DNA of 32,000 nt from Trichodesmium erythraeum IMS101 (GCF_000014265.1 NC_008312.1:6660001-6692000), one strand, 5' to 3'. Positions 167 through 31,836 are shown, counted from the first letter of the stretch. Numbers and translations are program-made. Notes: generated by a model from the letters alone, not told the origin.

Positions 167-745
167 ATGGGTTTATTTGACGATTTCAGCCAATTTCTCG
201 AAAACAGACTTGAAGAGTTCCTGCAGAATAACCCCCATTTAGAACTACAGGCACTTGAAGAGCAACTTCGCCAACAGGAAGAAGACACCCTGCGTCTCAT
301 TGTACAACTCCAGCGCCAAGAAAAAAAATTAGAACAAGATATTCTCTCAACGGCTCAAGAAGTTAAGCTTTGGCATAACCGAATTGAAAAGGCACAAACA
401 GCTAATAGAATAGATTTAGTTCAAGCGGCTCAGGAAAGAGAAGCATCTTTTTTACGACAAGGTAATCAACAGTGGGGACAGATGCAAGGATACAAGCAGC
501 GTATTCAGCAGGCGACAGAACTATATCATCAGATTAAACAACGTCGTAAGGAGGTACGAGCAAAAGCTACTCAAGCTGAGACTAGTAGTTATACTGCTAG
601 GAATGAAAAACGTTGGGAAACTGATGGCTGGAATCAAAACAGCTCCTATAATTTTGATAATTTATTCGACGACTTAGAGGAACAGTTTAAAAGCATGGAA
701 ACAAACGAAGAAATTGAAAGAATGAAGCGGAATATGGGAAAGTAG
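167..745 (+). CDS. Conserved cyanobacterial coiled-coil protein (TIGR04376-like; PspA-like heptad-rich architecture)
   Basis: 192-aa ORF starting at ATG. The N-terminus MGLFDDFSQFLENRLEEFLQNNPHLELQALEEQL matches what I recall of the cyanobacteria-specific TIGR04376 family. The sequence is Q/E/R-rich coiled coil. A strong hairpin terminator follows the stop. Confidence 0.8.
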   Translation: MGLFDDFSQFLENRLEEFLQNNPHLELQALEEQLRQQEEDTLRLIVQLQRQEKKLEQDILSTAQEVKLWHNRIEKAQTANRIDLVQAAQEREASFLRQGNQQWGQMQGYKQRIQQATELYHQIKQRRKEVRAKATQAETSSYTARNEKRWETDGWNQNSSYNFDNLFDDLEEQFKSMETNEEIERMKRNMGK

Positions 746-5758: not shown

Positions 5759-6274
5759 TTAATATTCTGCTTTTTCTATTTGGTAACGAATATCATTTAA
5801 GTCCACATATTGGTCTGTAGCATTTCGTAATTCTCTAGCAATCATTCCTTCAGTTGATACAACTGTAATATGAGTATTTTTAGAGCGCAATAGCTCAATA
5901 GCTCTTTCAAAATCTCCATCTCCACTAAACAAGACTACTTCATCATATTGGTCTACTGTATTAAACATATCTACAACAATTTCAATATCTAAGTTAGCTT
6001 TTTGAGAATAGCGACCTGAAACATCATCATAATATTCTTTCAAAATTTTAGTCCGTACTGTATAACCCAAACTAATTAAAGCATCTCGGAATCCTCTTTG
6101 ATCTTGTGGGTCTTTTAATCCTGTATACCAAAAGGCATTTATTAATTTTACTTCTGGTTTATTGAAGTATTCTAATACTCTTCTTGGGTCAAAAAACCAA
6201 CCATTTTTTTGTTGAGCATAGAACATATTGTTCCCGTCAACAAATATAGAAAGACGGTTCATGGAAATTTTCAT
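5759..6274 (-). CDS. NYN-domain (LabA-like) predicted RNase/RNA-binding protein
   Basis: 171-aa ORF containing RLSIFVDGNNMFYAQ.. and ..VVLFSGDGDFERAIELLR.., which are typical NYN/LabA motifs (the acidic residues of a PIN-like fold). Confidence 0.85.
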   Translation of the reverse strand: MKISMNRLSIFVDGNNMFYAQQKNGWFFDPRRVLEYFNKPEVKLINAFWYTGLKDPQDQRGFRDALISLGYTVRTKILKEYYDDVSGRYSQKANLDIEIVVDMFNTVDQYDEVVLFSGDGDFERAIELLRSKNTHITVVSTEGMIARELRNATDQYVDLNDIRYQIEKAEY

Positions 6275-6902: not shown

Positions 6903-7550
6903 TTAAGCCTTCTTACTTTCAATTGCCCAACGAGCTAACTCGGTCCGATTATGTAGACCAGTTTTACCAAGCATATTGCTCACATGACTTTCGATCGTTC
7001 TTTGACTAACTTCCATAATTTCTGCAATGTCACGATTAGCCATTCCCTGGGCTACTAATTTGACTACTTTTAACTCTCTGGGAGTCAACTCTACGTTTCG
7101 GCGTACCTTAATTGTTGGCCTATCGCTAAAACTGGAATTGTGATGTTTAATTAGGCGAGAAGCTTGTTTAAGAGAAGATTCTACTTGAGCCACAAGTTCT
7201 TCAGGTTCAAATGGCTTGACAATGTAGACGTCAGCTCCAGTATTAAGACCCTTAACTCGATCCTGAATTTGACCCTTTGCAGATAAAAATAGAACTGGAA
7301 CCCATTCTGTAGCTAAATTTTCTCTGATATGCTGCACTAGGTTGTAGCCATTCATTTGTGGCATCATCACATCACATATAATCAGGTCAGGAATTTGTTC
7401 TTCTAAAAGTTCTAGAGCTTCTCGGCCATTTTCTGCTGTTATTACCTGATATCCGCGAAATTCTAAATAATCTTTCACTAATAAGATTAAATTAGGGTCA
7501 TCGTCAACTAACATTAAATGTTTTGTATTTATAGCGTTTGTTTCCTTCAT
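6903..7550 (-). CDS. Response regulator, REC domain plus LuxR/NarL-type HTH (Ycf29/Rre1-like)
   Basis: REC motifs are LMLVDDDP, DLIICDVMMPQMNGY and VKPFEPEEL. The C-terminal part LTPRELKVVKLVAQGMANRDIAEIMEVSQRTIESHVSNMLGK is a LuxR-type HTH. The ATG at 7550 is preferred, and a GTG at 7565 is possible. Confidence 0.85.
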   Translation of the reverse strand: MKETNAINTKHLMLVDDDPNLILLVKDYLEFRGYQVITAENGREALELLEEQIPDLIICDVMMPQMNGYNLVQHIRENLATEWVPVLFLSAKGQIQDRVKGLNTGADVYIVKPFEPEELVAQVESSLKQASRLIKHHNSSFSDRPTIKVRRNVELTPRELKVVKLVAQGMANRDIAEIMEVSQRTIESHVSNMLGKTGLHNRTELARWAIESKKA

Positions 7551-9473
7551 AATTGAAGAACTCACTTTTTTGATTCCTAAAAATATTAACTTTACAGAGG
7601 GGTGAGCCCACTTATTTCATAAGATACAGTTGGAAGTAGGACAGGTTTACATCTTTCCTTGAAATTAATAATATATATTTTTACCTAGAAGGGTTGGACA
7701 GTATCTAATGCTGAAAGGAGGTTTATCCCCTATTTATTATAGATTATAGATTTTATATTCAATCAATAGTTCTATAATTTAGGTAGATATAGCTAGATAA
7801 TAGTTTTATAGTTGTGGAAAATAGCTCCTACTACTTTTAATAATAAATAAAATATGATAATTCAACTATATTCCCTACTAATAGTATCATAAATATTATA
7901 TATAAATATAGTTTTTATTAACTAAAAAGTAACCCTGCAATGTAAATATTTAGACATATTTTTTCTATAAATTTTAATAATTTACTAAGTCACTATCTAT
8001 TTTGACAAGAGTATAAAAAACTGTTGGCAAAATTAATTAAGTATCAAGAAAGTGTTTAGTAACTAAATCTTTCCGCTGGAATAAGCCTATTGTTCTTCAT
8101 ATCCCTCAAGTTATAATAAAAAAAAATTAACAAGTAATTATGTCTTCAGTTATTACCTAATATTCCTCTTACATATCTCCAAATTCTACATTTTCTTTTG
8201 GCAAAGGATGAGTTATAAAAAAATATTTATCTACAACTTGAGAGCCGATGATAGATTTTTGAATAATTCTTTCAATTATAGGGTTAGTTGCAGAATAGTA
8301 GGATACTTCTTTAGGAAAAATAACCATAGTTGCACCATGAAACAAACTCGTAAACAGTTAGCTTTAGCGTGAAATATATAACCTTAGCTGTTAAGGCCAG
8401 GGTCATTAAGGTTTAATTTTTTCACAAGTTTTTTGAGATAATTTCATGCTTCTAAAACAACTTTTTTTAAGCAAAATTTTGGTTTAGTTTGGTAAGCACC
8501 AATAAAAATATGTCTCTGAATTTTACCTAGTCTGAGAAATTGGACACAAATATCTAGGGACTCTTGACAAATATCTGAGTCAATATTCGACTGTTGAAAA
8601 TATCCTTGGGATATGGCTAGCTGAACGTCAGTCCCATGAGCTTTTTCTCCTGTGTTAAATATATTAACTCTCATCAACTTTCAAGACGCTTTGAATCTGG
8701 TTCTACTACAATAGTCCCTAGTGAGTTAAATGTCTAATGGAGAATGTCAAATGACTTACATTTCTAGAAGATCAAAAGTTTGACTCCCATAATTTTAGTT
8801 TATAGTCTTCTGAGATTAATTTTTGCTCCACCGTTGTTAAGTCAAAAGTTAAAAGTTAAGACTTAATAAGTATACCAAACCCAGTGAGCGAAAAGCTAGT
8901 TTTTCCAAATCCTTCCAACCCTTCTGCTTTCTGCCTTGCTCTTTTAATAAAGCTTCCAGATTTAGTATTACGGCATGGGATCAGACATTATAACTATAAG
9001 GTTTGAATAGTAAAGCTCTTGTAGTGCTAACATCTTGCTCAGTAAATCTTTGCCTTATAGTAGAAGGAAGTGCTGTCAAAGTAATTTCTGAAAAAGTAAA
9101 GGCAATACTCAGGTTAAGTAGCAGGCAGGAGGAATTGATCCTGACACTGAAGGAAGTAGCCTTGTGACAATCTTAGGAAGCAGGCAGCCAGTCTATTTCA
9201 ATGGTTCCTTTTCAGGAAGTCCTAAAGGTCAACTTCAGCTAAAGCGCCTCCTATCTCTTGTCTTTTCAATGAGTTTTCAGTGCCAAAATGTGGAGCAAAC
9301 AGAATTTATCAATGTCCTTAATACTAACTGCCAGGCAGCTTAAGACATTCTTACTACTCTCAGATTTAATACGTGCTGTGAATTTAACTTCTGATTTTTA
9401 AGTTATGACCTTAGCTTATACTTTAGACTTTTGACTATTATATTATAACTTTTGGTAAATACCCAAATCCTCA

Positions 9474-9632: not shown

Positions 9633-9944
9633 ATGGCAGCTGTAACACTGAGTGTTTCCACTGTTAAGCCGTTGGGCGAACGTGTATTCGTCAAGGTTAG
9701 CGAATCTGAAGAAAAAACAGCAGGTGGCATTCTTCTACCTGATTCTGCAAAAGAGAAACCCCAAGTAGGAGAAGTTGTCTCAGCAGGTCCTGGTAAACGG
9801 AACGATGATGGTACCCGCGCAGAAATGGAAGTCAAAGTAGGAGACAAAGTTCTCTACTCCAAATATGCTGGTACCGATATCAAGCTCGGTGGCGATGAAT
9901 ACGTCCTACTAGCAGAAAAAGATATTCTTGCAATTGTTAACTAA
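9633..9944 (+). CDS. groES: Co-chaperonin GroES (Cpn10)
   Basis: 103 aa with ..[59 protein letters not shown]... A GGAGG Shine-Dalgarno sequence lies 8 nt upstream. Confidence 0.97.
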
Positions 9945-10059
9945 TAATTCTGAAGTTATTCTCCAGCATGGGCAAACTTTTTCTTCATACTTGATGTTTG
10001 CTAAACTGCTAAAACAACTAACTATCAAAATACAAAAAATAAGTATCCACAATTACTAA

Positions 10060-11712
<1,653 letters not shown>

Positions 11713-13601: not shown

Positions 13602-13958
13602 ATGGCGCAACAAGCTGTTGGAGCACTGGAGACTAAAGGTTTTCCTGGTATCTTAGCTGCTGCAGATGCAATGGTCAAAGCTGGTAGAGTTACTTTAGTT
13701 GGTTATATTAGGGTTGGTAGTGCGAGGTTTACTGTTCAAATTAGAGGTGATGTTTCGGAAGTAAAAACTGCTATGGATGCCGGAATTGCAGCAGTAGATA
13801 AAGCTTATGGTGCTACCTTAGAATCTTGGGTAATTATTCCTCGTCCTCACGAGAATGTTGTGGCAGTTTTACCAATAGACTTTAATCCAGGTGTAGAAGA
13901 GTTTCGCCAACAAGTAGAAGGAATAACTGTACCAGGATTGCGTAGTAGTAGTATATAA
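13602..13958 (+). CDS. ccmK4: Carboxysome shell BMC-H protein CcmK4
   Basis: The sequence ..GFPGILAAADAMVKAGRVTLVGYIRVGSARFTVQIRGDVSEVKTAM...WVIIPRPHENVVAVLPIDF.. is typical of CcmK4. It sits immediately downstream of ccmK3, as in the known satellite locus. Confidence 0.85.
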   Translation: MAQQAVGALETKGFPGILAAADAMVKAGRVTLVGYIRVGSARFTVQIRGDVSEVKTAMDAGIAAVDKAYGATLESWVIIPRPHENVVAVLPIDFNPGVEEFRQQVEGITVPGLRSSSI

Positions 13959-14748: not shown

Positions 14749-15789
14749 ATGTTTGCCTACCTAACTAATTCTCATTTCCTGATATTTAATCTTATATCTG
14801 AAGTTATGAACACTTGGATTATACAACTACACAACTCTACGAATGAAACTACTTTTGTGACAATTACTGCTTTGATAACAGTGGTTTTTTGCTTTGGTTT
14901 GATTCCTACTGCTACAGATATTATGGTAAATTCTGCCGCAGGTTTAGCAGGTAAATATTTAGACAAAGACAAACGCACTATAGTAATCAATTCCAGTACA
15001 AATAACCCGGAATTATTTTTGATGTTGCTATCATTAATTCTTCGACGACTAGGTGGTATAGCAACTCCTCTAGGCTCAAATTTGGCTAATATTTATCTCA
15101 TGTTTATTGTGGCGCCAATAATTGTTATTAGTAAATGGATATTGATGGGCAAAATATCTGCTATTAAAAATTTTATCGAAATTTTTAACAAAGAAAAAAT
15201 GTTGTTTTTATGGCATCTTTTTATGTCATTATTGATGTTTACTTTTGCTACTACAGCTTACTGGTGTATTACAGGTAAATCTCAGTTTGCACCTTTGCCA
15301 GAAGGAATTAGTACTCGCACTTGGCCTTGGGTGGTTTTTGGTGGTTTAGTTTGTTTAATAGGGGTGTTAATTTTCTTATTTTATGAAAAACAATTTCAGA
15401 AAGAAAGACCAGAATTGTTTGATGATATTAGTACAGATGATTATACAGCAAGCTGGTTACAGTTTATTCTAGGGACAGCTTTATTAATTTTATTATCCTA
15501 TATATTGAATACATTCTTTATCGCCTGGACGGAAATTTATGATGATTTACTTAGTAGATTATTTGGTGATGCAGTTTTTGCAGCGCTGCATTATTTTTTG
15601 GGAAGTTTAATATCATCTTTACCAGAAACAATTGTAGCTGTAAAAAATTATGAACGTTTAACTTCGCCAGATTTGAATACTGCAATGGCATCTGCAAGTC
15701 AGTCAAATATGACAAATTTGGGCATAGGATTTTTTGGTAGTGTTTTAGCAAGTTTGCTGTTAGTTATGGGGATGAATTATCAGTTATAA
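14749..15789 (+). CDS. Polytopic membrane protein, divergent Na+/Ca2+ exchanger (CaCA/YrbG-like) fold
   Basis: The protein has about 10 hydrophobic segments. It has an alpha-2-like motif GSLISSLPETIVAV and a degenerate alpha-1-like motif INSSTNNPELF. An alternative start is MNTW at 14806. Confidence 0.7.
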   Translation: MFAYLTNSHFLIFNLISEVMNTWIIQLHNSTNETTFVTITALITVVFCFGLIPTATDIMVNSAAGLAGKYLDKDKRTIVINSSTNNPELFLMLLSLILRRLGGIATPLGSNLANIYLMFIVAPIIVISKWILMGKISAIKNFIEIFNKEKMLFLWHLFMSLLMFTFATTAYWCITGKSQFAPLPEGISTRTWPWVVFGGLVCLIGVLIFLFYEKQFQKERPELFDDISTDDYTASWLQFILGTALLILLSYILNTFFIAWTEIYDDLLSRLFGDAVFAALHYFLGSLISSLPETIVAVKNYERLTSPDLNTAMASASQSNMTNLGIGFFGSVLASLLLVMGMNYQL

Positions 15790-17429: not shown

Positions 17430-17498
17430 GTAATAAATTGAGGAAATAGTAATAGTAAATTAGAGGTAATAAATTGAGGAAATAGTAATAGTAAATTA
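17430..17498. repeat. Perfect 33-bp direct repeat x2 (period 36 bp)
   Basis: gtaataaattgaggaaatagtaatagtaaatta occurs at 17430-17462 and again at 17466-17498, separated by gag. Confidence 0.9.
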
Positions 17499-17848: not shown

Positions 17849-18901
17849 TTATATCTCAATTTTTGCTTTAATTTCTCTCAACTTATCCCTAACTTTACCA
17901 CTATTTAATAAACTTTCCGCTTTCAACAAACCTTCATTAATATCAGAGCAAATTCCACAACGCCACAAATAAAAAGCGCCATTCCAAATAACTGCTGACA
18001 TTAACTTACTGGCTTTACCCTGTAGTATTTTTTGTATCTCTTCTACTAACTCTGCAGTTGAACCCAATACAACTTCCTTCCCTCCACAACTATAGTCACT
18101 CGGATGTAACAATAGACGTTCAAATGTGGCATCATTCCCAGATGACAACGATACCCCAATAATAGCTGTCCGATCGCGGGGCAAGTCACAACTTCCCTCT
18201 AACCCCTTCACCGTTGTATAATTCCTCAAACCATGTAATTCCAATACTTCACGAAACATACCTTCTGTGGGAGGATGAACATACCCTGCAGCTAAATGAA
18301 CTTCTCCCGCCAAGGGTACCCAAATTAATTCCATTATTGCGATAGGAGGTCGTTTACCAATATCTCGACGATGTTTTACTAAAGCATCTGCTTGAGGAAA
18401 ATGTCTTGGTAAATAGACGAACCCTAGACCAGTTTCCTCAAATACTCGTTGAACCTCCACCAGCGATAATTTTCCCCACTCAACCCCTAGTCCTTGCCAG
18501 ATATCAATAAAAGGTATGCCTTCTTTTGTCGGCATCCGCCTTCCACCGTGGATGACAACAAATACTCCTGCTGTTGCCAAAATTAAAGCTGTGAGTAAGG
18601 TGACAGGTGAAGTCCGCGATCGCCCATCATAAGGACAACCTAAGACGGTTACTGTACCCATAGATGGTTGACTTTTAAGTTTTGGCCCCAATTCATTATA
18701 GGTATCTAACATTCCTGCTAACTCCTCACCAGTGGGGCGTTTAATACGGTGAGCAATAAGAAAAGCACCTATTTGTGTAGGTGTTGCTTCTCCTAATAAC
18801 ATCATGCGCATTGCTGCTGCTGCTTCTTGGCGAGTTAAATTTTTACCTGTGTGGGTTCCACTGCCAATGATTTTGAGTAATTCTCGAAAGCGATCGCTCA
18901 T
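17849..18901 (-). CDS. Anthranilate phosphoribosyltransferase-like (glycosyltransferase family 3) paralog, non-canonical
   Basis: 350 aa. The N-terminal helical domain (..LTRQEAAAAMRMMLLGEATPTQIGAFLIAHRIKRPTGEELAGM..) is TrpD-like. VLGCPYDGRSRT replaces the canonical GTGGD PRPP-binding motif. Confidence 0.85.
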   Translation of the reverse strand: MSDRFRELLKIIGSGTHTGKNLTRQEAAAAMRMMLLGEATPTQIGAFLIAHRIKRPTGEELAGMLDTYNELGPKLKSQPSMGTVTVLGCPYDGRSRTSPVTLLTALILATAGVFVVIHGGRRMPTKEGIPFIDIWQGLGVEWGKLSLVEVQRVFEETGLGFVYLPRHFPQADALVKHRRDIGKRPPIAIMELIWVPLAGEVHLAAGYVHPPTEGMFREVLELHGLRNYTTVKGLEGSCDLPRDRTAIIGVSLSSGNDATFERLLLHPSDYSCGGKEVVLGSTAELVEEIQKILQGKASKLMSAVIWNGAFYLWRCGICSDINEGLLKAESLLNSGKVRDKLREIKAKIEI

Positions 18902-19383: not shown

Positions 19384-20361
19384 TCAGAGATGACTTTGAA
19401 CTTTTAACTTTGAACTTTTAACTTGAGTGACTCTTGGTGGAATTATTTCTTTAACTAACTTGCAAAAATATTTTATTGGTGGAATTTTCATCCTATCGCT
19501 AGTTGTGACTAAAACTACATCACGACTCCAAACAGAATCTTTAGTTGAAGAGATCTTAGAAATGTTAGGAGTTTTAGCTATTGTTCTAATTGCTAGAGTG
19601 GGATCAACTCTGGCATCTAGTAGAGCTGAACTGGGCAGTAAAGCAATTAAATTTCCTTGTCTAACTACTCCTCGGAAAGCATCAAGGGTATTTAACTCTA
19701 ATGTTGCGTTCAGTTTTGCCCCTAATTGCTCAAATTGTTCTTTGACTAATCTCTGCATTCCATACCCATCTTTGAAGATAACTTGAGGGTAGTAAATAAG
19801 TTCTGCCCAGGGTATTTCTTTGTATTTAGCAAGGGTATGGTTTGCTGCCATTAATACTTCTATGGTTTCAGTGTATAGATGATGTACTATCATTTCTGAA
19901 GTGGGGGTAAATAAGTCATTATTCATAATGATCGCTACATCTACTAGACCGTCTTTGAGAACTTTGAGGATGCGATCGCTTCCTAGGGCAGTTACTCGTA
20001 ATTTAACTTCTGGATAGTGGCGACCAAATCTTTGCAAAACTGGAGGTAGGTAGTTAGCACAGACAGAGTGAATAGTTGCAATACATAATTCTGGTTGTTT
20101 TCCGGTGAACATTTCTGCTATTTCTTGAGTAGCATTTTCCCAAGCTTGACAAATTTTTCTAGCATGAGGCCACAAACATTCTCCTGCTAAGGTTAGTTTA
20201 GCTTGGTTGCTACGGTGAAATAAGATAGCACCTACTTCTGCCTCTAAGGCTTGCACTTGCCGACTGACTGTTGATTGGGTGACATTACATTTTTGTGCTG
20301 CTTCTTGAAAGCTACCCGTTTCTGCAACCCATAGAAACGCTTGCAATTGCTCTAGACGCAT
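19384..20361 (-). CDS. LysR-type transcriptional regulator (possibly CcmR/NdhR-CmpR clade; not verifiable here)
   Basis: 325 aa. The N-terminal wHTH is MRLEQLQAFLWVAETGSFQEAAQKCNVTQSTVSRQVQALEAEVG, followed by an LTTR substrate-binding domain. The C-terminal tail is encoded by an STRR-like aacttt(t/g) heptamer run. Confidence 0.9.
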   Translation of the reverse strand: MRLEQLQAFLWVAETGSFQEAAQKCNVTQSTVSRQVQALEAEVGAILFHRSNQAKLTLAGECLWPHARKICQAWENATQEIAEMFTGKQPELCIATIHSVCANYLPPVLQRFGRHYPEVKLRVTALGSDRILKVLKDGLVDVAIIMNNDLFTPTSEMIVHHLYTETIEVLMAANHTLAKYKEIPWAELIYYPQVIFKDGYGMQRLVKEQFEQLGAKLNATLELNTLDAFRGVVRQGNLIALLPSSALLDARVDPTLAIRTIAKTPNISKISSTKDSVWSRDVVLVTTSDRMKIPPIKYFCKLVKEIIPPRVTQVKSSKLKVQSHL

Positions 20362-20538: not shown

Positions 20539-20677
20539 AGGGTTTGAACAACTTAAAATTGTACCTAATTGAAACAATTATGTCTCAAATTTCACAGGTA
20601 AAATGGTCCATTTTCGTCCATTTTAAGTAAAAATTAGCTAAAAGGAAGTTGATTTAATGTAAACAGATAATTTTTGA

Positions 20678-22447: not shown

Positions 22448-23443
22448 TTAGCGTTTCTTTAACCAGCTAAACATAGCGCGTAAGTCTTTCCCAACTTCTT
22501 CAATAGAGTGTTCTGCTTCTTGGCGGCGCATGGCAGTAAATACAGGTTTACCGGTTTGGTTTTCCATGACAAATTCCCTGGCAAACTGACCAGATTGAAT
22601 TTCACTTAAAATTTTCTGCATCTGAGCGCGAGTTTCATCTGTAACGATGCGAGGCCCGCGAGTGTAGTCGCCAAACTCAGCAGTATTGGAGATACTGTCA
22701 CGCATATTAGCTAGACCACCTTCGACAACTAGATCGACTATAAGTTTAACTTCATGGAGACACTCAAAGTATGCTAGTTCTGGTTGATATCCAGCTTTTA
22801 CTAAGGTTTCAAATCCAGCTTTAATTAATGCACTGAGGCCACCACAGAGAACAACTTGTTCACCAAAGAGGTCTGTTTCAGTTTCTTCCCGGAAGGTAGT
22901 TTCTAGGATACCAGCGCGAGTACCACCAATACCTTTAGCATAAGCCATAGCGCGATCGCGTCCTTGACCAGAAGCATCTTGGAAAATGGCAAATAGACAG
23001 GGGACTCCTTCTCCTTGTTCATAAGTACGCCTGACTAAATGTCCAGGGCCTTTTGGTGCTACCATTACTACATCCACATTTTCTGGGGGAATAATTTGGC
23101 CAAAGTGAATATTGAAACCGTGGGCAAAAGCTAAAATTTTTCCTTCTTTGAGATGGGGTTCAATTTGATTTTTATAGACGGTTTTCTGCACTTCGTCTGG
23201 TAATAGAATCATGATTAGGTCTGCTTTTTCCGCAGCTTCATCTACTGGGTAAACATCTAGACCTGCGTCTTTGGCTTTGGTAGCAGATTTACTACCTGAA
23301 TAGAGGCCTACAATTACCTTTGAGCCACTATCTTTGAGATTAAGGGCGTGAGCATGACCTTGAGAACCATATCCAATGATAGCGATCGTTTTGTCATTTA
23401 AGATGTCCAGGTTAGCATCAGAGTCATAGTACATTCTGGCCAT
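22448..23443 (-). CDS. ilvC: Ketol-acid reductoisomerase (NADP+), class I
   Basis: 331 aa with [33 protein letters not shown] (Rossmann GxGxxG) and ..[17 protein letters not shown].., which are canonical IlvC motifs. Confidence 0.97.
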
Positions 23444-23810: not shown

Positions 23811-24323
23811 TCAATATCCATTAGGATTGATAGTAGTATGATCGTATTCTGCCATTGATAAATCAACAATTCTTGCTCTAAATAAATTACACCATCCCAA
23901 TTTAGCATTATCTAACTTAGCTTTTTCTAGGTTAGTTCCTCTCAAATCTCCATACCTTAAATCTGTATCTCTTAAGTTTGCATGGTATAAGTTTGCACCT
24001 TGTAAATTAATTCCCCTCAAATTTGCACCTTGAAGATTAGCATGACGCAAATTAGCTCTTGATAGATGTCCCTGTTGAATATTAGTATTTGATAAGTTGG
24101 CTTTATAAAGTTGAATATCTCCCATTTTTACTTCTAGTAAATTACATCCTTGGAGGTTAGCTTGATTCAAATTTGCATAAGGAAGATAAGCTCTTGTTAA
24201 ATTACAACCTTCTAAATTAATTCCTTCTAAATTAGCTTCAAATAACTCTATATTACTTAAATCAATACCAGAAAATTCTCTTTGACCCTCTGCATATCTC
24301 CATAGTAATTCCTCTGCATTCAT
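23811..24323 (-). CDS. Pentapeptide-repeat protein
   Basis: Long run of A(D/N)LXX pentapeptides (ANLEGINLEGCNLTRAYLPYANLNQANLQGCNL...). The start MNAEELLWRYAEGQREFSGIDL at 24323 matches typical N-termini of this family. The ORF track extends to 24374. Confidence 0.85.
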   Translation of the reverse strand: MNAEELLWRYAEGQREFSGIDLSNIELFEANLEGINLEGCNLTRAYLPYANLNQANLQGCNLLEVKMGDIQLYKANLSNTNIQQGHLSRANLRHANLQGANLRGINLQGANLYHANLRDTDLRYGDLRGTNLEKAKLDNAKLGWCNLFRARIVDLSMAEYDHTTINPNGY

Positions 24324-24539
24324 ATTCTCTATCTTAATATTTTTAGAGCTAATCTCGATTCGGTTGATAATCATAATTTATTGAATAAATGATGATTATT
24401 TATGTATTGTATTTTTATAATAAGTTATACTAATATTGTTGGGCAAAAATTACTACTATCCTAATCCTTTTTTAAGATTTGTAAAATTTTCATTTTTGAT
24501 GTTCTCTTGACCCTGACTCTACTCTAGGAGAAAGTATGG

Positions 24540-25100: not shown

Positions 25101-25741
25101 ATTTTTTTAGAATTAATAATTTTCAAGGTGAATGGCTATCATCCTGTACAGAAGTTATGAATAAATAGCTTTTACAGCAATAATAGTTCATAAATTATCT
25201 GATTTTTAAAAAATATATCTTGTCAAATGTTTTGATATTTATAGCCAAAATCAATTGAAATATATTCTTTTTTTACCCTCTTGTTTTAATTCTATATAAT
25301 TTTTATTATTAGCAAATACTGATAGTTAATAAACTAGTATTTTTCAAATAAATATACAGATAAAAAAATAAAAATTAAGCTCAAATAGTAATAATATATT
25401 ATATATTTAAATGAACTATTAGAGTATATTTATAAATATAAATTAATCAAAAAAAGACTTATTATTTTTCAATACAAACAACTAATACTACTAATATAAA
25501 TTGCTCAAAATTTTGCTAGCTGTAGATTAAGGTTGCACAACCTATTATTCTCCTTATTTCTCTTGTTCTGGAGTCGCACAAAACTTAAGTTTTTCAGTTC
25601 AATTAAGGATATAGAATACTTGCTTATTATTTTCTATACAGTTTAATATGTTATGTGTAAAACCACAATATTGCTTGCGATTTCTTGATGACGCTTCCTT
25701 GTAGGAAAGTAGTGGTCTACTCGCAACATTTAGATAAAAAG

Positions 25742-27259
25742 ATGGCAGAAGTTAAACAATCTATCGCTCAATATTATCATGAACAGACAAAATATGACCC
25801 AGAAACCATTGGGAGGAAAAATCACCAACTAGACTGGGAAAATCAACCAATACAATTTAAAGAGTATAAATTTGGGACAACTATTGACCTGAAACCTTAT
25901 CTACAAGAAAAAATTCAACAAAAAGATCCTAAAGAAGAAGAAAATCTATCCAACTTACTTGTATGTACTTATGGCTTAACCGGTAAGATACCAACAATGA
26001 TGGGGAATCATTACTTAAGGGCGGCTCCTTCTGCTGGTGGGTTGTACCCAGCAGAGGTTTACTTAATTTCCCGTGGCACACCCCTATTACCTACAGGATT
26101 ATATAACTATCAGGCCAAAACTCATTCCTTGCTCAAATTTTGGGACAATAGAGTCTGGCCAGAATTGCAGGATGCTTGTTTTTGGCATCCTGCTCTAGAA
26201 AATACAAAATTAGCGATCGCCATCACTGCCATATTCTATCGTTCTGCTTGGCGTTACGAAGATCGGGCTTATAGACGAATATTTTTAGATGCAGGTCACT
26301 TACTAGGTAACGTTGAACTAGCTTCTAGTTTCAGTAACTACCGATCACATCTAATTGGGGGGTTTAATGATGAAGCAATAAATCAAATGCTTTATTTAGA
26401 TAATCAGGAGGAACAGGCGATCGCCATTGTCGCCCTTGCAGACTTATTAGATATTGAACAACATCTGCCCCACTGGCAAGCTGCTTTACCTTCTGGGACT
26501 CAAACAGATTATCCGAAAATTCAAGAGGGTGACCTCTTAAAATATTTACATAAAGCTACTCATATTAACTCAAATTCTCCAAAAGTATCTGCTTGGAAAA
26601 CAAGAGCAACCCTAGAACATTCAGAAGATAAATATAACTTTCCATTTTGTACAAAAATTTCAACTGTAACTCCTCCCATTTCATGGGGTCAAGACTTACA
26701 AGGTCTCAGAAAGACAATTCTCAAACGACGTTCAACTCGCAGCTATTCGGGAGAAACTATTGCTTTGAATAAACTCTTGGCTGTCTTAGATTTTACTTAT
26801 CAACCCCACCATTACATTAATCAAGAATTAGATCGTAATCCTGATTATTTTGATATAAGTTTGATTGAGACTTTTATTGCAGTTTCTGGAGTAAATGACT
26901 TAGAAGATGGTTGTTATTATTATGCCCCAATAGCTCAAGAACTACGACAAATTAGGTTTAAAAATTTCCGAAAAGAATTACATTTTATGTGCTTAGGGCA
27001 AGACTTAGGTAGAGATGCTGCTGCTGTTTTATTTCATACTGCCGACTTAAAAAAAGCTGTAAGCAAATATGGCGATCGCGTTTACCGTTATCTCCATTCA
27101 GACGCAGGCCATCTAGGGCAAAGACTAAATTTAGCAGCTATTTATCTAGGTTTAGGTGTTAGTGGTATCGGCGGTTTCTTTGACGATCATGTGAACCAAG
27201 TTTTAGGTATTCCTGTAGATGAAGCAGTTATTTATATAACAACTTTAGGTTCTATTTAA
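25742..27259 (+). CDS. SagB-type dehydrogenase / tandem nitroreductase-fold protein
   Basis: The N-terminus YYHEQTKYDPETIGRKNHQLDWENQPIQFKEY plus RAAPSAGGLYP is the SagB-type signature. A second nitroreductase-like half has KRRSTRSY... and ..GIGGFFDD... The ATG at 25742 is preferred. The ORF track starts at TTG 25685. Confidence 0.85.
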   Translation: MAEVKQSIAQYYHEQTKYDPETIGRKNHQLDWENQPIQFKEYKFGTTIDLKPYLQEKIQQKDPKEEENLSNLLVCTYGLTGKIPTMMGNHYLRAAPSAGGLYPAEVYLISRGTPLLPTGLYNYQAKTHSLLKFWDNRVWPELQDACFWHPALENTKLAIAITAIFYRSAWRYEDRAYRRIFLDAGHLLGNVELASSFSNYRSHLIGGFNDEAINQMLYLDNQEEQAIAIVALADLLDIEQHLPHWQAALPSGTQTDYPKIQEGDLLKYLHKATHINSNSPKVSAWKTRATLEHSEDKYNFPFCTKISTVTPPISWGQDLQGLRKTILKRRSTRSYSGETIALNKLLAVLDFTYQPHHYINQELDRNPDYFDISLIETFIAVSGVNDLEDGCYYYAPIAQELRQIRFKNFRKELHFMCLGQDLGRDAAAVLFHTADLKKAVSKYGDRVYRYLHSDAGHLGQRLNLAAIYLGLGVSGIGGFFDDHVNQVLGIPVDEAVIYITTLGSI

Positions 27260-27851: not shown

Positions 27852-28076
27852 CTATATATAGTAGTTATAGTTAAGTTCTATAAACCTGGTATTTTCCAAA
27901 GTGTAAGTAATATCATGCCCGGTTGAATATTTAAAGGTAGGATAATTATGGCATAAGGCTCTCTGGCTCTCGGCAGGAGGATAGAATTGGCGCTTGCCAC
28001 CAGAATTTTTTTTTGATGAGTAATTATCCGGACATGATATAACCAAAGGGAAAAAAGGATAAAGTTTTTTGATCAC
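27852..28076 (-). CDS. Hypothetical 74-codon ORF overlapping the stop of the kinase-WYL gene
   Basis: The GTG start overlaps the upstream TGA as GTGA (28073-28076), an arrangement typical of translational coupling. I recognise no homolog, and the composition is not obviously protein-like. Confidence 0.3.
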   Translation of the reverse strand: MIKKLYPFFPLVISCPDNYSSKKNSGGKRQFYPPAESQRALCHNYPTFKYSTGHDITYTLENTRFIELNYNYYI

Positions 28077-30226
28077 TGATCATAAACTTCAACAATACCT
28101 AACCCAATTTCATAAACACTATCGATTAATTCATCTGGTTTTTTTACTTTTACATGACCGCCAAACCCAATAACCCAACTTAAAAAACTCACATCTTCTA
28201 TACACCAACAAGGTAACTCTACTCGAAACCGATAAGGAAAATGTTTATTTTTTGTACCTTCCAAATCAAAAATTTTTTCATATTCCTTCTTCTGGATAAA
28301 ACTACTACCTTGAGGAGGAGGTGACATTTTCAATGTTCCTGATGGAAACAGTTTAGTTTTTTCACATACAAACTCAAATTTCTCCTGATTAAACCACAAC
28401 TCAACTGTTACTATTACCTCCTTTTTTTTCTTCTTGTCTTTACTTAAAAATTTACTTTGATCCTCAGCTTTATAACCTAAAAATATCCCAAAGCTGGCAT
28501 CTAAAAGTTTTTGTAACCGTTCTAATTTTGAGCGCTGTTTTTCTGGGCAAGACTTTCCTAAATCTTGACTAATACGTAAGCGATCTAAACGTTCAAACCT
28601 GAATAAGCCATTGAAAGTACCCCCCTCATATTCAAAACCTAAATACCAAGCATTATTAAAAAATACTATCTGTAATAACCGAACAGAAAACTTTCCTTCT
28701 TCACCTCCACTAAATTTTCCTTTGCCTTTTAACCGCTCTAACTCGACTAATTTTCCATGAATAATAAATTCTTCAATTTGATCAAGTTTCCGAGATAATA
28801 CATTCTCATCAACGAACTCTAAGTCGATCATTGATTTATGAGCGATCGCTCTAATTGGATAAGGTTTTTCAATGTTAATTTTAGAAGAAATCATCCGTTG
28901 ACAAAACTGGTCATAAGTAGATAAAGCCATCGGATCTTCTATACTTTTAACTTGCCCTTGTAATATATCCTGCAAACGTTTTAATTGCTCCTGGGACAAA
29001 ATTCCTGTCCCGGCAAAATAACCACGTCGCATGGGAAATTCTGGCAATATATGAAAGGGTTTGAGAATATATTCCACATCCTTGCGAAATTTGTCTCGAC
29101 AGTTGCCTCCTATTCCTGGTTGTTTGGATAATTCTTCTGCAAAAATGTCTAAACTTTTTTGATCGTCGTTTCTGAGAAATGGTCGGTTTAAGATCAAACG
29201 AATGGCGGTTATTAACCTTTTAAACGGAGCAATATCTGAATAAGGATGGGGAATGATGTCTTGCTCTGAATTGTTTTCACTTCTCGCTTTTATCTCCTTC
29301 CCTTTTTTTCTTTTAAGGGGAAGATCAGATGTTCCATTTTTCTTTTTCCCCCTTTTTGTCAGGGGTTGGGGGGATATTTCCTGACGTAATATTGCCGGAG
29401 TAACAGTTTGTCCTTCTGCTACGATGCCGTTTTTTTCTAACCAAGCTAAGTCAGTAGCGATCGCTTCTCTGTCTGCATAAACTTCTCCTTTTAATAAGGC
29501 TATAACTGCTACTATTTCTGCTAAAGCATCTGGAAATTCTGGTACTTCTTTAAATATAGCAATTAGTATATCGGGTTCTGTTTGTTCTAAATTGCCAAGG
29601 CCTGGATATTTAATGAATAGGGCAATTAAATGCATGAGGCGCTCGAAGTCTAGGAGTCGGGAATAGGAATGAAATTCTAGGCACGAGAGACGGTTTTGGC
29701 GGTTAACGCTGCTGCGGGTTAGGGAGTCAATTTTTTCCTGTATTGTTTTGGGGTTAAAGTTAGGTTTTTGAAGAGTATGTACTGCTGCAAAGCCTTCTGC
29801 TATTATGGGCTGAAAGTTTTTCAGGGATAGAAACATTTTTTTGACAGTAGTTTCTGGTACTTTACGAGTCCGTTGTTTATTCCATTTTAGGCAGGTAGGG
29901 AGAGAGGTTTTTAGATGCCATGCTATCCATGCACAGTTTTTTTGGGGTAGTTTCTTTAGTAAGGCTATGCGATAGGGGCGTATGGCATTGGTGGCATCGT
30001 AAATGATGGGGATACCTGCTTTGATGCTTTGGGTAATTTGCTTGAGTAAGGTGGCTTCTATTTCCCTCCATTCTCCTTGGATGGTTTCGTTGCCATAGAG
30101 TTTGGAGCGTATTGTGTCTGTAGAAATGATGGTATAATCTCCTAATGTTGACAGTTTGGTGGCAAAGGTTGATTTCCCTGATCCTGGGGGACCGATGAGG
30201 AAGTGACATATTAAAGGTTTGTTCAT
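28073..30226 (-). CDS. Fusion protein: PNK-like P-loop kinase (AAA_33-type), wHTH, Lys-rich linker, second wHTH-like region, WYL domain, WCX-like C-terminal domain
   Basis: Residue numbers are from the TTG at 30253. Walker A GPPGSGKST is aa 21-29 (nt 30167-30193). IIYDATN is at aa 83-89. The lid RTRKVPETTVKKM is at aa 128-140. A wHTH-like segment ..ADREAIATDLAWLEKNGIV ends at aa 278. The linker KRGKKKNGTSDLPLKRKKGKE is at aa 300-320. The WYL core ..FSVRLLQIVFFNNAWYLGFEYEGG..FRFERLDRL has WYL at nt 28640-28648. The C-terminus ..FRVELPCWCIEDVSFLSWVIGFGGHVKVKKPDELIDSV resembles a WCX domain. The ATG at 30226 (MNKPLICHFLIGPPGSGKS) is preferred, and the ORF track starts at TTG 30253. Confidence 0.85.
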   Translation of the reverse strand: MNKPLICHFLIGPPGSGKSTFATKLSTLGDYTIISTDTIRSKLYGNETIQGEWREIEATLLKQITQSIKAGIPIIYDATNAIRPYRIALLKKLPQKNCAWIAWHLKTSLPTCLKWNKQRTRKVPETTVKKMFLSLKNFQPIIAEGFAAVHTLQKPNFNPKTIQEKIDSLTRSSVNRQNRLSCLEFHSYSRLLDFERLMHLIALFIKYPGLGNLEQTEPDILIAIFKEVPEFPDALAEIVAVIALLKGEVYADREAIATDLAWLEKNGIVAEGQTVTPAILRQEISPQPLTKRGKKKNGTSDLPLKRKKGKEIKARSENNSEQDIIPHPYSDIAPFKRLITAIRLILNRPFLRNDDQKSLDIFAEELSKQPGIGGNCRDKFRKDVEYILKPFHILPEFPMRRGYFAGTGILSQEQLKRLQDILQGQVKSIEDPMALSTYDQFCQRMISSKINIEKPYPIRAIAHKSMIDLEFVDENVLSRKLDQIEEFIIHGKLVELERLKGKGKFSGGEEGKFSVRLLQIVFFNNAWYLGFEYEGGTFNGLFRFERLDRLRISQDLGKSCPEKQRSKLERLQKLLDASFGIFLGYKAEDQSKFLSKDKKKKKEVIVTVELWFNQEKFEFVCEKTKLFPSGTLKMSPPPQGSSFIQKKEYEKIFDLEGTKNKHFPYRFRVELPCWCIEDVSFLSWVIGFGGHVKVKKPDELIDSVYEIGLGIVEVYDQ

Positions 30227-30412
30227 TTGTGGTAGCGGTGTTAAAAATATCAAGTTTTACACTATTAAACTTTTGTTTGAAAGAGTCTGAAGACATAGAC
30301 TCACCCCTAATTTTTTCCCTTGAGGGAGACTTTGTTTGGAATGTCCTTAAAACATTTATACAATTAATACTCTTTTAGCCTGCTAATTATCAAGAAAAGC
30401 TATCGGCTAGTG

Positions 30413-31064
30413 TTAATTGCTTAATTATTGAAGTTTTACCTAGATTTAAAAAATTTTTTTTATTTTTGGTATAACTAATTCTTTGGCAATGGGCATAATT
30501 TTTACAGAAAAATAGATAGTTGTCACTCGCATAATTTTACATAATAATGATTGCGGTTGTCAAAAAAAATATGCTATTTTAAAAATGTCAAAAAAATTAA
30601 GCAAATTATCAAATATGTAATCTAAGAATAGAAACTTTTCACTCGCATATATTGTCAATTCCTTAATTATTGAGGTTTTAGCTAGATTTAATTTTTTTTT
30701 ATTTTTGGTATAACTAATTCTTTGGAAATGGACGTAATTTTTACAGAAAAATAGATAGTTATAACTCGCATAATGATACATAAAAATGGTTGCGGTTGTA
30801 AAAAAAGTATGGTATTTTAAAAATGTAAAAAAAGTCAAGCAAATTATCAAATATATGATCTAAGAACATAAACTTATCACTCGTATAACTTTACATAATA
30901 ATGATTGCATTTATTAAAAAATGATGCTGCTTTCAGAATATTGAGAAAAAAATTAGCAAATTATCAACGACATTATCTAAGAATAAAAAACTTGTCTCCC
31001 GCATAAAATTATATAAGAAGAATTGTGATTCTCAAAAATGATGCTATTTTCAGAATATTGATAG
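30413..31064. repeat. Tandem repeat array: about six units of 115-124 bp, organised as a 242-bp super-repeat
   Basis: 30421-30662 aligns with 30663-30900 at high identity (ttaattattga.gtttta.ctagattta...ctaattctttgg.aatgg.c.taatttttacagaaaaatagatagtt...). Sub-units begin with (c/a)actcg(c/t)ata at about 30524, 30640, 30764 and 30878, and a degenerate one begins at about 30996. Confidence 0.85.
30534..30563 (-). promoter_or_regulatory. Putative sigma70 promoter in the proximal repeat unit, facing the kinase-WYL gene
   Basis: On the minus strand: TTGACA (30563-30558), 18 nt, TAAAAT (30539-30534). The predicted start is about 275-300 nt upstream of the kinase-WYL start codon. Weaker versions recur in the distal units. 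Confidence 0.4.
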
Positions 31065-31098: not shown

Positions 31099-31452
31099 GA
31101 AACTCTGAGCAATGAACAGTTTCATCAGGCTCTAAAAGAGGGTCGAGGAGATTTTATAAAAACTTGATTAATTAACCCTAATTTAGCGAAGAAAAATTTA
31201 GATGGTATTAACCTAAGTGGAGTTAATTTAAATAAGGTTAATCTTAGGGAAGCGTCTTTAATTAAAGCGCAGTTACATAGGACTAAAATGGTAGGAGCTA
31301 ATTTAGATTCGGCTAATCTCAAAGGAGCTCATCTTAGCCGAGCTAATTTAAAAGATGCTCAAGCATCTTGGGCAGATTTAAGAAATACAAATATGAGCAA
31401 TACTGTACTTCATAATGCTAATTTAACCGGTGCAGATCTGGATAAGTCATAA
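31099..31452 (+). pseudogene. Pentapeptide-repeat gene with no start codon and a premature TGA
   Basis: The frame reads ..LSNEQFHQALKEGRGDFIKT*LINPNLAKKNLDGINLSGVNLNKVNLREASLIKAQL...ANLTGADLDKS*. An in-frame TGA lies at 31165-31167, and there is no in-frame ATG before 31288. Confidence 0.6.
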
Positions 31453-31458
31453 TCAATT

Positions 31459-31836
31459 TTGGAAGCTAAAACAATGTTTGCCAGAGAAACAATATTTAAG
31501 GATTATAAAAGCGCTGCTTATAACCTAGAAGCATCTAAGGCTATTGAAAACAGACTGAAGAATCTAATTTTATTAATAGCTATTTCTTATGCAATTAGTT
31601 CATTTCAAGGAAAAAAAATTAAAAATAAAGGGCTTCAAGAATATATATCAAGAACTAATGAAAGAGGTAGAAAAGAAAGAAGACATAATAGTTTTTTTGT
31701 GGGATTATCTAGGATTTATTGGGCAATAAATGATAATTTTATCTGGGAATTAGTAGAACATTTAATGAGTCTTAATCCTCATAAATTTCTCTATTATCGT
31801 AGGGAAATAAAAGCGATGAATACAGTGGTTAATTAG
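31459..31836 (+). pseudogene. IS4-family transposase, C-terminal fragment only
   Basis: ..ETIFKDYKSAAYNLEASKAIENRLKNLILLIAISYAISSFQGKKIKNKGLQEYISR....RHNSFFVGL.. matches the C-terminal block of cyanobacterial IS4-type transposases. The catalytic N-terminal two thirds are absent. Confidence 0.7.

Follow-up and report, generated by a model that had tools for sequence, protein, structure and literature searches.

A predicted polynucleotide kinase fused to a WYL regulator module in a cyanobacterial family associated with type III-B CRISPR-Cas loci

Introduction

WYL domains are sensors of nucleic acids or nucleotides in regulators of CRISPR loci and other defence loci (PMC4012209, PMC10693628, PMC9503650). 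One such protein, sll7009, is a repressor of the Synechocystis I-D system (PMC4012209), and WYL domains have been described in fusion with Cas3, exoRNase, restriction endonuclease, HNH, superfamily 1 helicase, nucleotidyltransferase, BRCT and TerB domains, a list that includes no kinase (PMC4012209). Here we analyse a gene on the minus strand of a 32,000-nucleotide stretch of the Trichodesmium erythraeum IMS101 genome (GCF_000014265.1, NC_008312.1:6660001-6692000), referred to below as the window. A first-pass annotation, made from the sequence alone, had proposed that the product carries a polynucleotide-kinase-like P-loop domain fused to a winged helix-turn-helix (wHTH), WYL and WCX module. 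We hold with high confidence that this protein, hereafter the kinase-WYL protein, is a Pnkp-like kinase fused to a WYL regulator module and that it comes from a family associated with type III-B CRISPR-Cas loci.

The WYL regulators DriD, PafBC, CapW and BrxR switch upon binding single-stranded nucleic acid. To our knowledge, the WYL regulators of defence systems studied so far carry no enzymatic domain, and among the type III CRISPR accessory proteins examined to date, most are CARF or SAVED effectors that cyclic oligoadenylates activate.

Results

Gene call and kinase head

The 726-amino-acid (aa) open reading frame (ORF) called at first pass, 28073..30253(-), is present in the window, and all motifs quoted for it occur in its translation: GPPGSGKST (aa 21-29), IIYDATN (aa 83-89), RTRKVPE (aa 128-134), FFNNAWYLGFEYEGG (aa 531-545), FRFERLDRL (aa 551-559), GGHVKVKKPDELIDSV (aa 697-712) and a Lys-rich linker at about aa 300-325. 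Residue numbers in this text follow that ORF. The mechanical call extends further 5', as far as a TTG at 30253. Translation very probably begins at position 30226, an ATG, and yields 717 aa, because the family alignment sets in there, the public gene call P0001 has 717 aa, and ACCACAAATG at the start is kept in all seven sequences of the Trichodesmium/Okeania clade.

The N-terminal head of the protein is a P-loop domain of the polynucleotide kinase type (Table 1). Pfam AAA_33 matches aa 18-141 at E=3e-21, above the gathering score, which bears out the kinase proposed at first pass; KTI12 also matches the head (2e-8), and two NCBIfam models match it in part, PSTK (8e-15) and the kinase part of bacterial Pnkp (5e-11). 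An AlphaFold model of the whole protein, built with 36 homologs, had a mean predicted local distance difference test score (pLDDT) of 74, with about 90 in the head. The best Foldseek match of the head in the PDB was the CthPnkp kinase 4gp6 (E 1e-9, template modelling (TM) score 0.77, root-mean-square deviation 2.2 Å, 159 columns, 28% identity), and the next matches of the whole model were PafBC, mammalian PNKP, PSTK, Pnkp1 and DriD. A profile search of PDB sequences also aligned the family to CthPnkp (2e-14), via GSGKST, SSD..R, DATN and NRxxRQV.

Conservation was scored on 53 representatives of 50%-identity clusters, which are 25-46% identical to the query with a mean column identity of 29%. 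K27, D46, R49, D86-A-T, R92, N125 and R128 are at least 90% conserved in this set. Among close relatives in the family alignment, K27, D46, R49, D86 and R128 are invariant; the lid residue R130 is invariant among close relatives only. The Walker A motif GPPGSGKST, in which conservation of G26 and K27 is complete or at least 90%, aligns with GSGKST of CthPnkp, S44-T-D46-x-I-R49 with SSDFCR, and N125-x-x-R128-x-R130 with NKNRTDRQV. We take D46 and R49, the equivalents of D38 and R41 of CthPnkp, to serve, after T4 Pnk and CthPnkp, as the Asp general base and in positioning the phosphoacceptor. The window protein keeps all of these conserved residues.

The Walker A lysine and the DATN aspartate, singled out at first pass as catalytic, are thus as well kept as D46, R49 and R128. 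Since these residues are at least 90% conserved in representatives this divergent, the kinase active site is under selection across the family. By these alignments, the head is a Pnkp-type polynucleotide 5'-kinase domain with a complete, conserved active site and predicted activity.

wHTH-like, WYL and WCX module

The remaining 560 residues resemble a known class of regulators. Modelled alone, aa 166-726 (pLDDT 79) matched full-length wHTH-WYL-WCX regulators in Foldseek with E-values from 5e-8 to 7e-3: DriD bound to single-stranded DNA (ssDNA) and DNA (8tp8, E 5e-8), PafBC (9fnd), CapW (7tb6, 9c5g) and BrxR (7qfz, 7t8k). A comparison with PafBC, DriD and BrxR had been proposed at first pass. 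The Foldseek alignments span about 400 columns of full-length DriD 8tp8 and PafBC 9fnd, and the WYL-WCX part matches the DriD C-domain 7tzv at a TM-score of 0.70.

The PADLOC cas-associated WYL profile matches aa 480-717 (E=1.6e-18). Five predicted strands (aa 501-568) form the WYL barrel. Across the 53 representatives, its W536 is invariant, and Y537, L538, R555, D557 and R558 reach at least 90% conservation; Pfam WYL PF13280 matches 7 of 36 relatives. The Pfam WCX match of the window protein (aa 690-715, E 2e-3) lies below threshold at 18.7 versus a gathering score of 23.9 bits, and WCX matches 32 of the 36 relatives at E≤0.01. In the profile search of PDB sequences, the WCX region of PafC was matched at 8e-3.

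Between the head and the barrel, one or two wHTH-like segments had been suggested. The predicted structure contains two helical modules (aa ~195-280 and 336-400), which start with the same conserved H-x-Y-S-x4-F-x-R-L motif; in the first, H195, Y197, S198, F203, R205 and L206 are invariant in the family alignment, and the helices predicted over aa 168-274 have pLDDT values mostly between 80 and 93. No Pfam HTH model matches this protein or its relatives, so the wHTH label is a structural one, and the presence of two wHTH-like segments is a prediction from the models. The Lys-rich linker is predicted to be disordered and is variable across the family, differing in length or being absent in relatives.

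In summary, profile searches bear out the two ends of the proposed architecture, and the order of kinase head, two wHTH-like modules, WYL barrel and WCX-like domain, with a C-terminal module resembling the DriD/PafBC/CapW/BrxR class, is confirmed. Membership of the wHTH-WYL-WCX class holds for WYL; for WCX it is borderline in the window protein and holds at the level of the family, and for wHTH it is structural only. Among variant architectures of the family, we found no extra domains.

Linkage of the family to type III-B CRISPR-Cas loci

Searches returned 351 family matches at 90% clustering, the named ones from filamentous cyanobacteria, and 254 clusters at 50% identity (E≤1e-30). Relatives occur in at least 257 cyanobacterial species genomes, almost all of the 80 loci that we fetched are titled cyanobacteria, and the family is apparently restricted to this group. 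Public annotations of relatives read 'WYL domain-containing protein', 'AAA family ATPase' or 'predicted kinase'; both halves of the protein are therefore already named, and the family is already detected by the cas-associated WYL profile.

In the 80 loci, ORFs were called and clustered, and neighbours within ±8 kb were named by PADLOC. The recurrent neighbour clusters were Cas10b/Cmr2 (2e-227), Cmr3, Cmr4, Cmr5 (2e-65), Cmr6 (5e-224), the CARF-HEPN protein Csx1 (1e-187), Csx18, Cas1 and Cas2. The neighbourhood of the homologs is a type III-B locus with an adaptation module. Genes of the cmr set are found in 55/80 loci and CRISPR arrays in 49/80; where at least 7 kb is available on both flanks, 38 of 41 loci contain cmr/cas genes or arrays. 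The adjacency spans Nostocales, Oscillatoriales, Trichodesmium MAG_R03/R04, Okeania and unicellular plasmids, among which the annotated plasmids of PCC 7002, C. aponinum and Euhalothece show the same linkage. Genomes with two cmr loci, Okeania SIO2B3 and Nostoc FACHB-110, carry two copies of the gene, one at each.

Homologs sit between the cmr operon (cas10b-cmr3-cmr4-cmr5-cmr6-csx1) and the arrays with csx18-cas1-cas2, often divergent from cas10. A typical Nostocales locus opens with csx1-cmr6-cmr5-cmr4-cmr3-cas10 on the opposite strand, in some cases followed by an array; next come the kinase-WYL gene, an array that begins 2-400 nucleotides (nt) past the stop of that gene, and csx18-cas1-cas2. 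The cmr operon lies upstream and co-directional in Lyngbya/Limnoraphis and Okeania, and downstream and convergent in Trichodesmium MAG_R03/R04; in the C. aponinum and Euhalothece plasmids, 209-273 nt separate cas10 from the gene. Nostocales Cas10b is short (~530 aa), with Cmr2_N and palm domains and a GGDD motif; HD was not matched. Within ±8 kb of the gene, neither Cas6 nor Cmr1 forms a recurrent cluster, in a search that was not exhaustive for Cas6. This recalls the Synechocystis III-Bv system, which is cas6-less and is matured by RNase E and RNase J (PMC12464536).

Arrays often flank the kinase-WYL gene on both sides (L019 7389-7784 and 10217-10914; L075 10081-11024; L003 5996-7795). As judged from the repeat end ...ATTAATGGAAAC, both flanking arrays would be transcribed towards the gene, so the upstream array could read through into it.

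The first-pass annotation had guessed at an accessory or defence function, for reasons of a small coupled ORF and of the setting in the window. Those reasons fail (see below), and the guess gains support at the level of the family through its linkage to type III-B loci, where known defence genes do co-occur with homologs. The evidence for a defence role is this linkage, which is invisible in the window itself.

A stand-alone kinase in Synechocystis

On plasmid pSYSA of Synechocystis 6803, SGL_RS01075 ('AAA family ATPase', 171 aa; L082 11992-12507) is 42% identical to the head over 149 aa, has all of its motifs, and lies just past the type III-Bv CRISPR3 array. The kinase head is thus separable from the WYL module. 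Two genes after the stand-alone kinase follows an AlkB gene. On plasmid pAQ6 of PCC 7002 (L083 10016-13683), the full gene is followed by an S-adenosylmethionine (SAM) methyltransferase and an AlkB. These neighbours may hint at a theme of nucleic-acid repair or modification, and we regard the setting as reminiscent of Pnkp/Hen1 RNA repair. A general AlkB/methyltransferase link was rejected: it was seen in only 2/7 annotated loci inspected (PCC 7002 and Synechocystis), and no recurrent cluster of the 80 loci showed it.

A candidate operator motif

Alignment of the short cas10/kinase-WYL intergenic regions of 13 Nostocales loci yielded a block ~65-125 nt upstream of the ATG, which holds the inverted repeat CATGCGAATGACGAAATTT - N18-30 - AAATTCGTGATTCGCTTGA. 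A 26-nt motif, CCTTTTCATGCGAATGACGAAATTTT (as a site sequence, TTTTCATGCGAATGACGAAATTT), has the inner dyad TCAT-N4-ATGA and occurs as an inverted pair in the 13 loci. The motif search was seeded from a 10-mer. In the 400 nt upstream of the gene, the core ATGCGAATGA shows a 14-fold enrichment, and 55 further exact copies lie elsewhere in the loci, against ~2 expected; 51 of these are intergenic.

A position weight matrix (PWM) of the 26-nt motif, trained and scored on the same loci, gave 130 sites of at least 16 bits in 63/80 loci, versus 0 in shuffled loci. All except four of these sites (126/130) are intergenic; they are concentrated upstream of the gene, cas10 and csx18 and are oriented towards the arrays. 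Examples are L013:7874-7941, L010:7229 and 11198, and L019:7001, with others in L006, L007, L024 and L026. PCC 7002 carries a 21-bit site (L083:12073), and no motif sites were found in Synechocystis, whose homolog is without wHTH and WYL.

As an RNA structure, the Nostocales inverted repeat was rejected: the RNAalifold result had 10 pairs and −4.7 kcal/mol, with 0 compensatory changes, and for lack of such changes the repeat behaves like a site in DNA. Apart from the kinase-WYL protein, no conserved protein of these loci is predicted to bind DNA. The 26-nt motif thus looks like an operator of a locus-specific regulator, for which the kinase-WYL protein is the candidate.

On the Euhalothece plasmid pEu1 (L085 8883-8925), the 273-nt cas10/kinase-WYL intergenic region contains a perfect 12-nt inverted repeat, TTTCCACGCGAA-N19-TTCGCGTGGAAA. 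The half-site TTTCCACGCGAA resembles TTTTCATGCGAA of the Nostocales motif, and the repeat looks like a lineage variant of it; this likeness suggests that operator and regulator co-vary between lineages.

The Trichodesmium copy and its surroundings

The reading frame of the window copy is intact, and the copy is orphaned: no cas genes or arrays lie within 28 kb on one side or within 1.7-2.5 kb on the other. The upstream side covers only 1.7 kb, or 2.5 kb in the near-identical Tara Oceans contig L081, which adds only ~0.8 kb upstream. In the window, tblastn with all members of the Cmr, Csx1, Cas1, Cas2 and Csx18 clusters gave only chance matches (none better than E 1e-3), no CRISPR array was found, the Trichodesmium CRISPR repeat is absent, and there are no Rfam or tRNA matches. 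The window was also rejected as a defence island, as PADLOC finds only the LabA/NYN-like ORF, 22 kb off. An isolated 20-mer, GTTTACATTAAATCAACTTC, at 20645-20664(-) has 3 mismatches to the GTTTCCATTAATTCCACTTC CRISPR repeat of family loci; such a match is expected 0.02 times per window and was seen in 2/100 shuffles, and since it is isolated and 8 kb from the gene, it is probably due to chance.

The nearest relatives are 73-75% identical and comprise an orphan among housekeeping genes in Trichodesmium MAG_R02 (L001) and a cmr-linked copy in MAG_R03 (L055). Synteny of the window with L001, the closest ortholog, was rejected, as the neighbours there differ (FAD oxidoreductase, DegT, glycosyltransferase, molybdopterin oxidoreductase). 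At L055 533-898, 7 kb upstream of the intact copy, a second kinase-WYL gene is represented by a 121-aa fragment, which spans the linker and the second wHTH-like region; the fragment is 92-95% identical to the intact copy and therefore points to a recent partial duplication.

Three elements of the setting had been cited at first pass. The coupled downstream ORF (74 aa, 27852-28076) does overlap the stop codon of the gene, and has no homolog in related loci except in the near-identical contig L081; as it is not conserved, we dropped it as a gene. The upstream repeat array is real (Table 1), and it is lineage-specific and not a CRISPR array, having periods of 239 and 117 nt and no spacers. A similar array (70-73%) lies upstream of the kinase-WYL gene in MAG_R03 (L055, 4257-4728 and 7375-7435) and is absent from the MAG_R02 locus. 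Each repeat unit carries, on the strand of the gene, sequences like ATGCGAGTGA with one mismatch to the operator core, and the three best PWM matches of the 32-kb window (30514, 30630 and 30986, on the gene's strand) fall inside the repeat, with scores not above shuffled ones. Mobile-DNA debris, lastly, is confined to the upstream 1.7 kb, where the pentapeptide fragment and the IS4 remnant are signs of rearrangement directly upstream of the gene; the other 28 kb are ordinary chromosome. Positions 1-27300 are AT-rich (GC ~26-42%), with long ORF-free stretches, and are Trichodesmium-like. The clade-conserved region before the ATG is probably a 5' untranslated region or core promoter.

Table 1 Features of the window and of the kinase-WYL gene (aa, ORF numbering).
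Feature	Position	Strand	Basis
Coding sequence of the kinase-WYL protein, 717 aa and stop, beginning at the conserved ATG	28073..30226	-	family alignment, public gene call, conserved ACCACAAATG
Polynucleotide-kinase-like P-loop domain, aa 11-165; Walker A G26-K27-S28, D46-x-x-R49, D86-A-T-N, lid R128/R130	29759..30223	-	profiles, Foldseek, alignment
Helical connector and first wHTH-like helical module, aa 166-283; H-x-Y-S-x4-F-x-R-L at aa 195-206	29405..29758	-	predicted helices 168-274, alignment
Lys-rich predicted disordered linker, aa 284-333	29255..29404	-	pLDDT below 50; gapped/variable alignment columns
Second wHTH-like module and helical linker, aa 334-480; H-x-Y-S-x4-F-x-R-L repeated at aa 336-347	28814..29254	-	alignment, models, Foldseek
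WYL beta-barrel, aa ~481-590; W536-Y537-L538, R555, D557, R558	28484..28813	-	PADLOC profile, model, Foldseek, conservation
WCX-like C-terminal domain, aa 591-726	28076..28483	-	Pfam WCX aa 690-715, relatives, PafC WCX region
Proximal upstream region, CAAAAGTTyAAtacTGtAAAACtt...ACCACAA before the ATG, conserved in the Trichodesmium/Okeania clade	30227..30278	-	seven aligned upstream regions
AT-rich tandem repeat, 2 x ~239 nt with ~117-nt sub-repeats	30411..31061	.	repeat finding; related array in L055
Pentapeptide-repeat fragment, 54 aa; DNA shares 92.5% identity with a stretch of an L055 pentapeptide gene region	31288-31452		
IS4-family transposase C-terminal remnant, profile positions 238-338 of 340	31459-31836		
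TIGR04376-family protein	167-745		
LabA/NYN-like protein	5759-6274		
Response regulator	6903-7565		
groES/groEL	9633-11712		
Bacterial microcompartment (BMC) shell protein fragment	13602-13958		
Unassigned 346-aa ORF	14749-15789		
Perfect 36-nt tandem duplication, 1.9 copies, GTAATAAATTGAGGAAATAGTAATAGTAAATTAGAG, intergenic	17430-17498		
trpD-like gene	17849-18901		
LysR regulator	19384-20361		
ilvC	22448-23443		
Pentapeptide protein	23811-24374		
Two-domain SagB-like dehydrogenase	25685-27259		

Discussion

We read the kinase-WYL protein as an accessory protein of type III-B (Cmr) loci, likely a regulator of Cmr/CRISPR genes that combines a sensor of single-stranded nucleic acid with a 5'-OH kinase. 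For this combined reading we estimate a probability of about 0.55. Its specific mechanism, with motif binding, single-strand sensing and 5'-OH phosphorylation, is put forward more tentatively, as a proposal that may well need revision. A dimer would bind the 26-nt motif and control transcription of its own gene as well as that of the cmr genes, CRISPR arrays and adaptation genes. The WYL barrel would sense single-stranded nucleic acid from interference, which could be RNA fragments or, by analogy with DriD, PafBC and CapW, ssDNA. Cleavage by Cmr4 and by HEPN RNases yields 5'-OH and 2',3'-cyclic phosphate ends, and the kinase head would phosphorylate the 5'-OH ends left by Cmr4 target cleavage and by the Csx1 HEPN RNase.

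Phosphorylation might pass such fragments on to RNases E and J, which in cyanobacteria prefer 5'-monophosphate RNA (PMC10939160), or otherwise into decay or repair; alternatively, it might give the sensor a specificity for 5'-OH ends. The ligand-gated 5'-OH phosphorylation and the ATP-controlled DNA binding considered at first pass are both plausible. A further step, in which the family reads the end chemistry of fragments, the head phosphorylating 5'-OH ends made by Cmr4 and Csx1, the WYL domain binding the same strands and the 26-nt operator closing a feedback loop onto cmr, array and adaptation-module transcription, with orphan copies rewired towards other targets, is speculative and we hold it to be rather doubtful. 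As the window copy is orphaned, it would, if it acts, act in trans or on other targets.

Several observations weigh against this reading of the family as kinase-bearing regulators of type III-B loci. Kinases of the AAA_33 type have further substrates, among them tRNA-bound serine (PSTK) and small molecules. The DNA-binding fold is predicted, with no Pfam HTH match and with TM-scores of only 0.36-0.45 to full-length DriD and PafBC, values that are low because domain orientations differ. The PWM counts come from the training loci; in the Okeania loci, closely related to the window gene, no site reaches 16 bits; and the same operator was rejected for the window, where the best PWM match, 8.2 bits, equals the mean maximum of shuffled windows. 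Alternatively, some other factor could bind the motif as an element of the CRISPR leader or promoter. Orphan copies without nearby cas genes include not only the window copy but also L001, L053, L059, L064 and the Microcystis and Stanieria plasmids, and their recurrence indicates that the protein can persist without an adjacent cmr operon. The first-pass annotation knew of no characterised member with this architecture, and our literature search likewise found none, nor any account of a kinase-WYL fusion or its III-B linkage.

Other explanations give different weight to the two halves of the protein. It might heal or mark nucleic-acid ends and have no role in transcription: the wHTH-like, WYL and WCX parts would hold single-stranded RNA or DNA, as a WYL domain holds single strands in the PIF1 helicase and WYL1 does in Cas13d, and the kinase, within a repair module, would repair or tag host or invader RNA cut by Csx1 or Cmr. 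The complete and conserved Pnkp-type active site suits such an enzyme, as do the stand-alone head at the Synechocystis III-Bv locus, the AlkB gene after that kinase, the SAM methyltransferase and AlkB after the gene in PCC 7002, and the missing HTH match. We nevertheless judge it unlikely, given that the AlkB/methyltransferase linkage is limited to 2/7 annotated loci and 0 recurrent clusters of 80 loci, that no phosphatase or ligase partner is conserved, that the C-terminal 560 aa match whole DNA-binding regulators, N-terminal domains included, and that divergence from cas10 together with a palindromic intergenic motif fits a regulator. At the opposite end stands a pure transcription regulator whose P-loop head is a nucleoside triphosphate (NTP) switch, gating dimerisation or DNA binding by its ATP or GTP occupancy, with no phosphotransfer to nucleic acid. 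This alternative had been raised at first pass; many regulators carry NTP-binding modules, and catalysis by the head is only predicted. The phosphoacceptor residues D46 and R49 are, however, as conserved as the Walker A lysine, and the head exists alone in Synechocystis, which makes a mere switch improbable.

A helper in the biogenesis of CRISPR RNA (crRNA) in cas6-less III-B systems, its kinase setting the 5' ends of pre-crRNA fragments for RNases E and J, would account for the absence of a recurrent Cas6 or Cmr1 cluster within ±8 kb and for a gene often directly flanked by arrays that, by repeat orientation, would be transcribed towards it; the related Synechocystis III-Bv system indeed matures via RNase E and RNase J (PMC12464536). 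Against it, the absence of Cas6 comes from a search that was not exhaustive, and the WYL/wHTH module is left without explanation. RNase E products, moreover, already carry a 5'-phosphate, so that no kinase is obviously needed, and we regard this role as highly improbable. The window copy, finally, might be a relic, non-functional or drifting after loss of its cmr partner and hence without consequence in this genome: neither cas genes nor their remnants nor CRISPR repeats occur in the window, the gene has an IS4 fragment and tandem repeats directly upstream of it, and the nearest relatives are only 73-75% identical. An intact reading frame that keeps every invariant and nearly invariant family residue, a near-identical copy in an independent Tara Oceans assembly (L081) and the recurrence of orphan copies in other lineages make decay very improbable.

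If the kinase-WYL protein is a conserved regulator with a predicted polynucleotide kinase, as we favour, it points to an unexplored step of type III immunity, either the handling or sensing of 5'-OH products or a new feedback control. Were the more speculative end-chemistry proposal true, immune gene expression would be tied to the chemistry of RNA ends by a sensor coupled to an enzyme, and the family would form a new class of CRISPR accessory device. For tests, the genetically tractable Picosynechococcus PCC 7002 has an ortholog (pAQ6, SYNPCC7002_RS14880), and Synechocystis 6803 offers a natural kinase-only version. For the window itself the result is more modest, an orphan copy in a Trichodesmium genome.

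Comparison with known systems places the protein between two groups. With the CthPnkp kinase, and also T4 Pnk, mammalian PNKP and Pnkp1, it shares aligned Walker A, D-x-x-R, DATN and lid arginines. Unlike CthPnkp, it has no phosphatase or ligase domain and is fused to a regulator module instead; it is therefore not a bacterial Pnkp RNA-repair enzyme, and the NCBIfam TIGR04075 (bacterial Pnkp) match spans only positions 12-159 of 851, at 41 bits versus a cutoff of 750. SGL_RS01075 of Synechocystis shares the kinase head and the III-Bv adjacency, and stands alone without wHTH, WYL and WCX. RtcR (CARF-AAA+-HTH, regulator of the RtcAB RNA repair operon) offers a functional analogy only, in that a damaged-RNA sensor domain is coupled to transcription control of a system for nucleic-acid stress (PMC4012209); its domains (CARF, sigma-54 AAA+) are unrelated, it has no kinase, and the two are not homologous.

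Like sll7009 and the CRISPR-associated HTH-WYL regulators, the kinase-WYL protein is a WYL protein of cyanobacterial CRISPR-Cas loci that matches the PADLOC profile; unlike them, it carries a kinase domain, and its family goes with III-B and not with I-D. It differs from DriD of Caulobacter, PafBC of actinobacteria, CapW of CBASS (cyclic-oligonucleotide-based anti-phage signalling system) and BrxR of BREX (bacteriophage exclusion) in its 165-aa kinase head, its second wHTH-like module, an identity of 9-18% and the lack of an HTH profile match. It resembles the same regulators in the predicted fold of aa 166-726 (DriD, E 5e-8) and in the setting of its gene, which adjoins, and often diverges from, a defence operon, with a palindromic motif in the intergenic region.

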